A stretch of 64,000 nt of DNA from Legionellales bacterium (GTDB lineage Bacteria > Pseudomonadota > Gammaproteobacteria > JABCZS01). Each line of letters starts with the position of its first letter. The first letter of the stretch is position 1. The position numbers are program-made. Of the stretch, positions 15,001-18,000 are shown piece by piece. Location of the stretch: the NCBI GenBank assembly GCA_041660525.1, contig JBAZWD010000001.1, positions 224,022-288,021 on the forward strand, in the 5' to 3' direction.

Positions 15001-18000
15001 AGTCTTTGAAAATGGGCATGTTGTTGAGTCGGGTTCACAGGCTGAATTACTGGCAAAAGACTCGCATTTTGCGAAGCTTTGGAAAATGCAGGCTGGTGGG
15101 TTTTTGCCGGGTTGATATAAAGCACGTTATAGACATATATGTCGATAACGTGCTTTATTAAATTTAAAACCTTAATGTCTCCTTATTTTTCAATGTTGAC
15201 ATTTGGCCGTATTATGGCTATCATTGTCCGTATAAACAAAATTGGCCGTAAAATGAAAAAAATAGATAAAAAATTGGCCGTATTAATGGCTATTAAGCAA
15301 ATGCATGAACCTATCTCGCTCCCAGATTTATTAAAATATTTAGGAGAAGGCTATGCCGAGCGAACTACACGTAGATGGCTACAAGAATTAATTGAAGAAA
15401 AGCTTCTTGAAAAAAAAGGACAAAAAAGAGGGACTTTATATTTTGTTAAGCCGGAAACATTAATTCCACAAATTTCACCTATGTTATTTACAAAACAAGA
15501 TGAGATTGCCATCGCTTATGTTAAACAACCGTTATATACTCGAAAACCTATCAGTTACCAAATACAATGGCTAGCGTCCTATGTGCCCAATAAAACATTT
15601 TATTTATCAGTGGAGCAACGCACTGTATTAAAAAAACAAGGTGAACGTTCGTATACAAACGAACTTGCGGGTACATATGCACGTCATATTTATAATCGTT
15701 TATTAATTGATTTATCTTATAACTCATCGCGTTTAGAAGGTAACACTTATTCATTATTGGATACAGAAAAATTAATTATTGAAGGTGTAAGTGCGCCCGA
15801 TAAGCTTGAACAAGAAAAAGTTATGATTTTAAATCACAAAGAAGCTATTCGCTATTTAATTGATAATGCAGAAAGAATGAGTATAGATGTTCATACCATA
15901 CGTAACTTGCACTATTTATTAGCTGATGGTTTATTAATGGAACAAGGTGCGGGAAACTTACGTGGTCATGCGGTTAAAATAGGGGGCTCTACTTATTTAC
16001 CATTAGATAATAAAGTACAGCTCGAACAAACATTAGATTTAATTTGTAAAAAAGCTGAACAAATAAGTGATCCTTACGAGCAAAGTTTTTTTCTTTTAGT
16101 TCATATGGCTTATTTGCAAGCATTTGAAGATGTTAATAAACGTACAGCACGTTTGTCTGCAAATATTCCGCTGATTAAAAACAATCTTGTTCCATTGTCT
16201 TTTAATGACGTACCAAAAGACGACTATAGCGCTGCTATGGTTGCTGTTTATGAGTTAAATGATACAAATCCGCTGGCATCACTTTATCATTTTTCTTATT
16301 TGAGAACTTGCGAGCAATACGATGCAAATGTTGAGTCGATTGGTTTTGATAGAATAAAAGTGACTTATCGAGCCGAGCGACGTAAATTATTAAAAGATAT
16401 TATTGTTATGGCAATGACAGGTGAAGAAATTCAAAGGTATATCGGAGTAAAAACACAAGACTTAATTCCAATCGCGGATCAATCGGAGTTTATTAAAACT
16501 ATTAATGAAGATATCAGAGGTTTGGACATTAGTCGTATTGCAGGCCTTGGCATCACAAAAGAACAGCTTATTGCTTGGCAGGAATTGCAGAAGAAATAAT
16601 TAGCAATCCATAAAAAACCTTTCCCGCTTTTAGATTTTTTATAAGCTGTAAATTCTCTGGGAAAATCATTTCATCTAATGGCTGGTTATGTTCGATGTAG
16701 ATTTTTGCATCGGGTGCTAAAAGCTGATGTTCAACTAATAATTTTAAGCATGGAATAATTAAATTCTCAGCATAAGGTGGGTCTAGAAAAATAATATCAA
16801 ATTTTTCGCTTTCGGTTTTTTTGAGCCAAGTTAGCGCATCGGTTTTTGCAAATGCTGCGTTTGATATTTTTAAATCTTCGCTATTTTGTTTTAGATTGCG
16901 AATAATATGTGTGTCTTTTTCTAGAAATGTTACGTGCCGAGCGCCTCTAGATATTGCTTCAAACCCCAGCGCGCCGCTGCCTGAGAATAAATCTAAGCAG
17001 TTTGCACCCGTAATATCTTCACGCAGCCAATTAAATAAAGTTTCACGAATGCGATTAGGTGTGGGGCGCACGATATCATCGGGGACCTTGATAAGGCGGG
17101 AGCGTAAGCTACCCGCGATTATGCGTATTTTATTGCTCATCTACGCCTAGCGTTACTGTCGCTAAATGTTTTGAACCCACGTATTCGTTAAATACACGTT
17201 TAATATCATCGGAGGTGACGGCATTTATTTTGGCTAAATAATCATCGTAATAATTAAGTGGTAATTTATAAAACGCGAGTTTGGCCACTTGTTGCGATAA
17301 AGCTGCATTGGAATTAAATGCCATTAAGAATTTTCCAGCAATATTTTTTTTAGCTTTATTTAACTCTTGTGGTGTGGGGCCAGTGCTGATAAATGTGGTT
17401 AAATGATCAAGCACAAGTTTTAGTGCTTGCTCGCTGGCATCATTGCGTGTTTGTAAATAAATCATAAAGGGCCCTTTTTGTTTTAAGGGTAACACTTGGC
17501 TGCGCACATTATAGGCTAAACCTTCGTTTTCACGTACCACTTCAAATAATTGTGAAGATAAACCTGAGCCACCTAAAATTTCATTACCCAAATAAAAAGC
17601 AAAAAAATCAGGGTTGCCTTTTTCTAGTGTGGGCAGGCCTACCAAAATATGTTTTTGTTGCGAGGGGAATTCAATATGTTCAACCTGAGTTGTTGCGGGT
17701 ATGGTGACGGCTGGAATCTCGGGCGCTGCTGCACCTAGAGGTAATGCTGCTCCAAAATTTTCAGAAATAGTTTCTGCTTCTTCGCGCGAAATATCACCGG
17801 TAATGACTAAAATAGCATTTTGTAAGCTGTAATAGCGTTGATAAAATTCATTAATATTTTCCAGTGTAAATGCTTGGATATTTTCTGCTGTTCCTAGCGT
17901 GGGTGATGCATAAGGGTGCTTGCCGTAAATTGTTTTATAAAAAGCATTGCTGGCCAGTGCTTGTGGTGATTGGCTTTGTGCTTTAAGTGCAGTTAATAAT

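Follow-up and report, generated by a model that had tools for sequence, protein, structure and literature searches.

What does a Fic protein do when the histidine by which Fic enzymes are defined has been replaced? The question is raised by a gene in a 64,000-nucleotide stretch of DNA (hereafter the window) from a Legionellales bacterium (GenBank assembly GCA_041660525.1, contig JBAZWD010000001.1, positions 224,022 to 288,021 of the forward strand), whose product joins an N-terminal winged helix to a Fic core carrying the variant signature QAFEDVNKRTAR (Table 1). An initial annotation had called this motif degenerate and had considered that the protein may be a pseudo-enzyme acting as a DNA-binding regulator, or may use a different chemistry. 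We found that the signature is shared by a very large family, and that the start of the gene is overlaid with an array of short boxes that recurs in fixed phase at most homologous loci and co-varies with the winged helix. The interpretation that we favor, with a probability of about 0.6, is that the gene is a dosage-controlled, solitary accessory module of the toxin or defence type, whose Fic domain acts on a conserved cellular target, or traps it stoichiometrically, by non-canonical chemistry, and which does not regulate other genes.

A Fic signature with glutamine at the histidine position

The Pfam Fic model PF02661 matches residues 211-305 above its curated cut-off (29.2 versus 24 bits), and the 448-amino-acid protein has the alpha-helical core fold of the Fic/Fido superfamily. 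In a phmmer search against the PDB (E = 1.5e-8), YLQAFEDVNKRTARL pairs with LVHPFTDGNGRTARL of FIC-1/FICD, LQAFEDVNKRTARL is placed on VHPFTDGNGRTARL of C. elegans FIC-1 and human FICD, and SSRLEGN pairs with TVAIEGN of FICD, the helix that holds the gatekeeper Glu (E234). Residues 234-250 fall on the FICD flap, by sequence alignment alone. In QAFEDVNKRTAR, Gln289 stands for the catalytic His and Val294 and Lys296 stand for the two Gly, and Phe, Asp, Asn and both Arg are retained; measured against the superfamily signature HxFx(D/E)GN(G/K)RxxR, it departs at the invariant His and at the first Gly, Lys being an allowed alternative at the second Gly. No HPFxxGNGR motif occurs elsewhere in the protein. 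The placement of the variant motif, the inhibitory-type helix and the N-terminal winged helix that the initial annotation had described are thus all borne out.

An AlphaFold model computed from a 27-sequence family alignment (mean predicted local distance difference test score 86.4) orders the chain as winged helix (1-66), flexible linker (67-80), helical N-terminal extension, inhibitory helix, Fic core (about 186-345) and a helical domain that continues up to residue 448. In the winged helix, the recognition helix is predicted at about E36-E48 (ERTTRRWLQELIE) and the wing at about G56-Y63 (GQKRGTLY). The C-terminal domain, residues 346-448, has no Pfam or NCBIfam match, and the region is conserved within the family. 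Judged from its S158-E162 motif, which lies in an inhibitory helix that precedes the core in the same chain, the protein is a class-II Fic protein.

The open reading frame (ORF) extends from 15139 to 16599 on the plus strand, and the ATG at 15253 gives the 448 residues. We take 15253 as the real start because an identical 448-amino-acid record exists (P0001, 'Fic family protein [Legionellales bacterium]', on a 461,777-bp contig), because close homologues are 440-460 amino acids long and because a promoter-like site lies within the longer ORF; a start at 15139 was rejected on the last two grounds.

Replacement of the His is the rule among the relatives of this protein. In a homology search, 7,993 of the 8,000 candidates scored were significant, and the best 120, which are full-length and 50-72% identical and come from Legionellales, other Gammaproteobacteria and Chlamydiota, without exception carry Q-[AGPCS]-F-x-D-[VCGSI]-N-K-R-x-x-R, mostly as Q.F.D[VC]NKRT[AS]R. 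An exhaustive profile search over 1.84 billion cluster representatives (50% identity clustering) returned 914 clusters at E <= 1e-30 and 2,358 at E <= 1e-10. We counted motif conservation in the best 150 cluster representatives, 147 of which cover the motif: the His position is Gln in 145, Trp in one, Arg in one and His in none. Pro fills the second signature position in 112/147, and at the first Gly position 102 representatives have Val and 26 have Gly; as these two positions vary, what sets the family apart is the change of His to Gln and of the second Gly to Lys. The remaining active-site residues, the gatekeeper Glu and the flap are listed with their counts in Table 1. Going by this conservation, the family signature is fixed as Q-[PA]-F-x-D-[VG]-N-K-R-x-x-R, a conserved alternative and no product of decay. 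A pattern scan with one genome per species found family relatives in at least 591 species, and 39 plasmids carry homologues of identical architecture and motif. The plasmid homologues, from Alpha-, Beta- and Gammaproteobacteria, are about 40% identical and equal in length, with the N-terminal winged helix, SSxLEGN and QPFEDVNKRVSR.

Such a signature was described once before. Khater & Mohanty (2015; Sci Rep 5:10804; PMC4454073) defined, within the Doc clade, a clade D2 of 45 sequences with the consensus Qx[F|Y]x[D|E][G|V]NKR, in which Gln replaces the essential His; the clade was 'usually single-domain' and restricted to bacteria, and the authors argued that it was under selection and probably not dead, reporting no function, regulation or context. 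The protein has QAFEDVNKR, which fits that consensus, and by this motif the family very probably belongs to the D2 Gln clade. It differs from the published description in its three domains, its class-II rather than Doc-like Fic structure, its conserved operator array and its size of about 900 clusters. The term degenerate therefore does not suit a motif that is the fixed Q...V-N-K-R...R signature of a very large family noted in 2015 (PMC4454073). Nor is the second Gly merely lost, since the Lys found there is a Doc-type feature: in Doc, Lys at signature position 8 inverts ATP binding, so that phosphate and not AMP is transferred (PMC4177925).

The likeness to Doc of the phage P1 Phd/Doc pair is confined to this Lys (..N-K-R). 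Of the Doc-kinase signature HxFx(D/N)(A/G)NKR, the family has the Lys (Lys296, in 133/146 representatives) and not the His. Doc keeps the His, lacks the second Arg and is a small single domain neutralised by a separate antitoxin, Phd, whereas the protein in the window has R300, an inhibitory helix of its own and class-II architecture; among Doc models and structures, none matched it better than E = 0.94.

The His of Fic enzymes serves as general base in AMPylation and is the proposed general acid in deAMPylation. In FICD, His363 is needed for both reactions, and the H363A protein forms a long-lived complex with AMPylated BiP (PMC8373988). FICD/HYPE and FIC-1 (PDB 4U04, 5JJ6, 6I7K) align with our protein in the flap and in the gatekeeper Glu, Asp, Asn and two Arg residues, and FICD Lys256 aligns with Lys184, but FICD has His363 and Gly-Asn-Gly, carries TPR domains in place of the winged helix and is eukaryotic and resident in the endoplasmic reticulum. 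Where AMPylating Fic proteins have their general base, ours has Gln289. The expectation that canonical His-dependent AMPylation is lost therefore holds, as it is the His that both FICD (PMC8373988) and the Yersinia toxin CccR, inactive as H192A (PMC9755527), require.

These observations bear on a first alternative, namely that the protein is purely a pseudo-enzyme repressor, its Fic domain dead and left with nothing but oligomerisation or ligand sensing to tune DNA binding by the winged helix. We regard this as possible but rather unlikely. It would fit the fact that no family representative has the catalytic His, which is essential for both FICD reactions and for CccR toxicity, and also the fate of some lineages that have dropped both phosphate loop and EGN and yet retain the rest of the protein. 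Among 141 complete representatives, about 15 lack parts of the phosphate loop (e.g. QGFYDFNQPTAR, QPFIAVNRRAAR) and 20 lack the EGN of the inhibitory helix. Eight lack both (odds ratio 10.9, Fisher p = 1.4e-4, kinship ignored), and this coincidence suggests that, in the main family, the loop and the gatekeeper helix function together as a unit, which a few branches have abandoned. Such coupled loss (odds ratio calculated with kinship ignored), together with a conservation of Asp, phosphate loop, flap and Glu that exceeds the needs of a sensor of its own dosage, argues against a dead domain. Separately, we noted sub-branches (P0127, P0129, P0142, P0177, P0199, P0215, P0235, P0238, P0241, P0246 and P0268) in which YLQ.F is kept and the D-x-N-K-R loop is gone, as in QPFIAVNRRAAR and QAFENLNESLAR, often with the inhibitory EGN gone too. 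These may be natural 'site-dead' versions of the protein.

A phased box array at the start of the gene

The 137-bp spacer between the ABC exporter gene and the Fic gene holds a sigma-70-type promoter-like site, both hexamers of which are conserved at the two closest loci (L090 and L092), one of which has other genomic surroundings. Three exact copies of TTGGCCGTA fall within 80 bp around it and the start codon, and one further copy occurs in the 64-kb window, where 0.63 would be expected; the Fic gene start is the site of the only box cluster in the window. Box 2 (TTGTCCGTA) lies 21 bp beyond box 1, a spacing typical of the family, and the equivalent of box 3, at about -10, is filled in many homologous loci. 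An alignment of the window with its two closest relatives brings both the promoter and the boxes into register.

Table 1. Features of the Fic locus in the window, and conservation of single residues among the best cluster representatives.
Feature	Position	Strand	Basis or remark
Fic coding sequence, winged-helix/Fic protein, 448 amino acids	15253..16599 (incl. stop codon)	+	ORF call, homologues
N-terminal winged helix-turn-helix, residues 1-66	15253..15450	+	
Inhibitory-helix motif SSRLEGN, (S/T)xxxE(G/N), gatekeeper Glu162	15724..15744	+	Translation, FICD alignment
Flap GNLRGHAVKIGGSTYLP, target-docking hairpin, residues 234-250	15952..16002	+	FICD flap alignment
Variant Fic signature QAFEDVNKRTAR	16117..16152	+	Translation, phmmer, family conservation
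C-terminal helical domain, residues 346-448	16288..16596	+	AlphaFold model, helices 339-447
Promoter-like site, sigma-70 type, TTGACA-17 nt-TATCAT	15196..15224	+	11/12 consensus positions
Box 1, TTGGCCGTA, exact, candidate operator	15203..15211	+	Within -35/-10 spacer
Box 2, TTGTCCGTA, one mismatch	15224..15232	+	Overlaps -10 end and expected transcription start
Box 3, TTGGCCGTA, exact	15242..15250	+	Ends 2 nt short of ATG
Box 4, TTGGCCGTA, exact	15274..15282	+	Inside codons 8-10 (Leu-Ala-Val)
Phe291			Conserved in 147/147
Asp293			Conserved in 140/146
Asn295			Conserved in 145/146
Lys296			Conserved in 133/146
Arg297			Conserved in 136/146
Arg300			Conserved in 145/146
Glu162			Conserved in 143/145
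Gly234 (flap)			Conserved in 149/149
Arg237 (flap)			Conserved in 150/150
Pro250 (flap)			Conserved in 147/147

We compared 78 homologous loci, allowing at most one mismatch to TGGCCGTA on either strand. The density of this motif is 12.7/kb in the region from -250 to +80 of the gene start versus 0.47/kb elsewhere. An 8-mer that is present at least three times between -160 and +60 was found at 73 of 77 Fic loci versus 17 of 506 other upstream regions of the same loci, and in none of the control stretches inside the Fic gene. Arrays of 3-8 boxes per locus precede the gene in Chlamydiota, Verrucomicrobia and Gammaproteobacteria, and the consensus of 287 sites is AAAW-TGGCCGTA-TT. Neighboring boxes on the same strand are 20-21 bp apart in 85 cases, with lesser peaks at about 11, 31, 41 and 52 bp, and those on opposite strands are 17-18 or 23-24 bp apart, a pattern that places all the boxes on one face of the helix. 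Typically, minus-strand boxes lie at about -93 and -73 and plus-strand boxes at about -50, -30, -10 and +22. The last of these, present in 31 loci, is inside the gene and encodes [Leu/Met]-Ala-Val. Among the 34 loci with that peptide, the Ala codon is GCC in 25 (background 0.23; p = 5e-10, kinship ignored) and the Val codon is GTA in 29 (background 0.20; p = 6e-16, kinship ignored), so it is the DNA sequence of the in-gene box that is conserved.

Two simpler origins of the array were considered and rejected. The boxes are not a mere duplication of 5' coding sequence, given their fixed phase at 73/77 loci with varying number and orientation. Nor do they represent mobile-element ends or a regulon, as the arrays occur solely at the 5' ends of family genes: in about 1 Mb of flanking DNA, the only other array lies in L039, upstream of a second, truncated copy of the gene. 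In this locus (2379-2451 and 2481-2612), the second array, of five boxes, lies about 820 bp downstream of the family gene and is followed by the second copy (MSLRDNKMAVLRQLGLESE...), which reaches a stop after about 44 codons and looks like a decaying tandem paralogue. Two other loci (L049 and L074) have two family genes each, side by side. For the Thiothrix subterranea plasmid NZ_CP133216.1 (L084, 4001-4049 of the locus), RefSeq seems to begin the Fic gene about 16 codons late, at 4049; both the alignment and the TGGC[GT]GATAA box array favor a start near 4001 (MADNHKTVLQ...).

The boxes change together with the protein. All 52 loci with TGGCCGTA have a wing of the form G-x-[KR]-[KR]-[GAS]-[TS]-x-Y, and seven of the eight with TGTCCGAA have G-x-T-[KR]-x-[AV]-x-Y. 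At TGGC[GT]GAT loci, Arg40 of the recognition helix is replaced by His, Asn or Ser, and at TGGCCATA loci we find RAVRRWI and KKSGT. The plasmid homologues (40% identity) have iterated boxes of their own, ATTGCGC[CG]TA or TGGCGCGATA. A conserved, phased array that co-varies with the winged helix leads us to infer that this domain recognizes the boxes and that the gene is repressed by its own product. Comparison establishes the cis-element itself, and the binding and the autorepression are what its sequence relations suggest. The earlier idea that the winged helix would act on the upstream region of its own gene is in this way strongly supported in silico.

The strong sequence evidence for DNA binding would also be expected of a pure repressor with a dead Fic domain. 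Such a repressor, however, would need something to regulate, and the boxes are found solely at the promoter of the gene itself, in the 64-kb window as in about 1 Mb of flanks, next to which no neighbor is conserved; a role as a pure DNA-binding regulator, as first proposed, is therefore unlikely.

In its mode of working, the protein is most like CccR of Yersinia pseudotuberculosis (PDB 7XUX), its closest characterised analogue, although the type of enzyme differs. CccR is a class-II Fic toxin with a helix-turn-helix (HTH) domain by which it represses the promoter of its gene, and H192A abolishes its toxicity and AMPylation, His192 being needed for the AMPylation of FtsZ (PMC9755527). Each of the two combines, in a single polypeptide, a DNA-binding domain with an N-terminal inhibitory helix (S59ARIEG in CccR, S158SRLEG here), and both have a set of repeats at their own promoter, which CccR binds at its -35/-10 and which our protein would bind likewise. 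They differ in the core motif (the canonical H192PFGNGNGRTVR of CccR versus the Gln/Val/Lys motif), in the place of the DNA-binding domain (a C-terminal HTH versus an N-terminal winged helix) and in the operator, a pair of palindromes in CccR and 3-8 phased boxes, 20-21 bp apart and extending into the coding region, here. CccR adjoins a type VI secretion effector cluster, whereas the Fic gene in the window is solitary. CccR is thus a canonical His-dependent AMPylase linked to a secretion system, and our gene has Gln289 and flanks without secretion genes.

Apart from the boxes, a 42-bp near-perfect palindrome (ATAAAGCACGTTATAGACATA / TATGTCGATAACGTGCTTTAT) occupies 15117-15158, beginning 2 nt past the stop codon of the ABC exporter gene. 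It has no T-run behind it, and neither L090 nor L092 has it in the regions that align; it might serve as a terminator or be bound by a protein.

Neighborhood, partners and mobility

In the window, the gene stands between genes for RsmJ, an AAA ATPase and an MsbA-like ABC exporter on one side and, on the other, a convergent rsmD, M16 peptidases and FtsY. The exporter upstream and the convergent overlap with rsmD had already been recognized; the overlap measures 32 nt (16568-16599). It is kept in L092 (7322-7353), whose Fic protein is 68% identical. The last 11 or so residues of RsmD, which include the roughly 10 overlap codons, lie beyond the RsmD family profile (matched residues 2-179/190). 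The Fic region is slightly rich in A+T, with a G+C content of 0.345-0.347 at 15001-17000 versus about 0.385 in the whole window.

When the ORFs of 80 loci and the window were clustered, no recurrent neighbor gene was found, and none is conserved at nine plasmid loci. A partner gene, be it an antitoxin, an immunity gene or a target, was therefore discarded, as no ORF cluster recurs beside the Fic gene. The commonest neighbors are unrelated ABC ATPases, orphan AAA ATPases (of three kinds, at 13/81 loci), an APH-like kinase and LeuRS. On plasmids they are integrases/recombinases, RelE/ParD, HipA (twice), type IV secretion genes, helicases and SbcCD-like genes. The two HipA-domain kinase genes, which adjoin the Fic gene in L081 and L083 (Cereibacter and Undibacterium plasmids; 2/9 plasmid loci), are probably there by chance, the regions being rich in toxins.

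The gene order RsmJ, ABC exporter, Fic, RsmD, two M16 peptidases and FtsY is shared by the related genome whose Fic protein is 68% identical, and in another related genome, with a Fic protein of 67% identity, the gene is located elsewhere. The gene is therefore accessory: it moves between lineages and can be stably inherited. The spot between rsmJ and the ABC exporter is itself variable, as L092 has an unrelated 207-amino-acid ORF in place of the AAA ATPase. In the window this ATPase, two genes upstream of Fic (12032-13264, minus strand), is a DUF4143-type orphan AAA ATPase that matches PDC-S01, a PADLOC candidate for phage defence, at E = 7e-92 and no NCBIfam model. Near the syntenic locus of L092 lies a gene (227-2485, minus strand) for a 752-amino-acid ankyrin-repeat protein. 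Ankyrin-repeat proteins are typical of the eukaryote-like repertoire of Legionellales. A scan of IMG/VR with patterns that reach close relatives only gave no viral relative, and tblastn against phage records gave distant Fic-level matches only; on these grounds a phage origin was discarded.

This setting calls to mind SoFic, a single-gene class-II Fic protein that is toxic through AMPylation and protects against phage, and for which a small downstream antitoxin, AS1, has been reported. The resemblance lies in the single-gene, class-II organization and in PADLOC matches to PDC-S04 (3.6e-15) and to SoFic. SoFic has the canonical His and a C-terminal domain beyond the matched part; the SoFic match (PDLC03963, E = 2.8e-11) covers residues 110-313 against positions 9-218 of a profile of 361. 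The 3' end of the gene overlaps rsmD and so leaves no room for an AS1-like antitoxin, and neither the phage-record tblastn nor the IMG/VR scan gave a phage link for the family. With its defining His absent, the protein is not a Doc, a SoFic or a canonical AMPylating Fic.

Might it nevertheless AMPylate? An AMPylating toxin of the SoFic/CccR type, working through weak catalysis by Gln289 or through a substitute base, could serve in abortive infection or addiction and be held in check by Glu162 and autorepression. Candidate bases would be the nearly invariant His195 and His284, which is found in about three quarters of the representatives. All the residues needed are conserved except the His; residual activity of H-to-A and H-to-Q mutants of other enzymes is cited in PMC4454073; tight autorepression is typical of toxic proteins such as CccR; and SoFic offers a precedent for a single-gene class-II defence protein. 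The gene is also often near integrases, toxin-antitoxin genes and orphan AAA ATPases, with a PDC-S01-type ATPase two genes upstream in the window. We nonetheless consider this improbable, because Gln is no general base and the Doc-type Lys296 is expected to block the orientation of ATP that AMPylation requires, because the IMG/VR scan, which covers close relatives only, gave no relatives on viral contigs, and because the match to the SoFic model is partial.

That the protein might be a secreted, host-targeting effector of an intracellular bacterium is suggested by its closest relatives, which are enriched in amoeba-associated Legionellales, Chlamydiota and Francisellaceae, by CccR, which is both secreted and self-repressing, and by CbFic2 of Coxiella, a Fic protein that binds DNA and has host histone H3 as its target. 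The family, however, has members in the free-living Microbulbifer, Thiothrix, Alcanivorax, Zooshikella and Verrucomicrobia as well, and plasmids with the gene are found in soil and marine alpha- and beta-proteobacteria; a sequence-specific operator at the promoter of the bacterial gene itself speaks for a role within the bacterial cell; and no secretion-system linkage exists within the window. An effector is thus very improbable; the frequency of Fic effectors in Legionella-like organisms, invoked at first, does not indicate such a role for a family that is spread over free-living bacteria and plasmids.

A proposed mode of action and its meaning for the family

We return to the dosage-controlled accessory module. 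As the comparison of loci shows, the gene moves as a self-contained cassette that consists of its own promoter, overlaid with 3-8 boxes two helical turns apart, and the coding sequence that follows. The winged helix would bind the boxes cooperatively along one face of the DNA, and the bound array would occlude the -35/-10 region, the transcription start, the start codon and codons 8-10, so that negative feedback would keep the level of the Fic protein low. Feedback as tight as this suggests that the protein is harmful in excess. The Mg-binding Asp, the phosphate loop of Asn, Lys, Arg and Arg, the gatekeeper Glu and the flap are highly conserved, which indicates that the Fic domain is no decayed relic; it would still bind a phosphorylated ligand, probably a nucleotide with Mg, and dock a protein target. 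With Gln in place of the His that acts as general base or acid, and with a Doc-type Lys that should shift the seating of the nucleotide, canonical AMPylation would not take place. Because the regulation is of the gene itself only and no partner is present, the output has to come through the other domains of the protein, and it would consist in the binding or modification of a cellular target with the use of the phosphorylated ligand. Catalysis on the one hand and stoichiometric trapping or sensing on the other appear about equally likely.

Several observations weigh against this proposal. Published reports of DNA binding, nucleotide binding, toxicity or a target were found for no member of the family, and the statistics of co-variation and codon bias ignore shared ancestry. 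With parts of the loop gone from about 15 of 141 complete representatives, at least some lineages survive without an intact site, which fits a non-catalytic role. Stable synteny in at least one Legionellales relative, the absence of close relatives from IMG/VR and the merely distant Fic-level matches in phage records weaken the flavor of a mobile defence gene, and the PADLOC matches are only moderate (PDC-S04 3.6e-15, SoFic 2.8e-11).

A bolder version, speculative and to our mind doubtful, draws on the analogy with CbFic2, in which DNA binding switches between AMPylase and deAMPylase through dimerisation: Gln-type Fic proteins might be active enzymes with a His-free chemistry, switched by their cooperative assembly on the phased array. 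The reaction might be hydrolysis, an 'eraser' activity in which Glu162, the gatekeeper, would activate the water, or it might be a transfer from a Doc-like inverted nucleotide to an acceptor that needs no base (a phosphate, carboxylate, thiolate or nucleic-acid end). If true, this would add to the Fic fold a new reaction class and a new principle of control.

In the literature on characterised Gln-type Fic proteins or self-repressing winged-helix Fic proteins, we found only the 2015 survey and CccR, and no follow-up of the single mention of the Gln branch in that survey. Relative to the literature searched, the size and spread of the family, its class-II, winged-helix architecture and its operator array with protein-DNA co-variation are new. 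For annotation, members of the Gln-type family should not be named adenylyltransferases or SoFic defence systems by default. The array predicts DNA probes for the protein and the residues of helix and wing that would contact them, argues for dosage sensitivity, and constitutes a natural data set on how the specificity of a winged helix changes, with at least five box variants and matched changes in the protein. Fic enzymes have been defined by their catalytic His, and here a branch of about 900 clusters has long had Gln in its place while keeping the other elements of the active site. This branch would be either the most extensive collection in nature of Fic 'substrate traps' or sensors, or the seat of a Fic reaction that has yet to be described.

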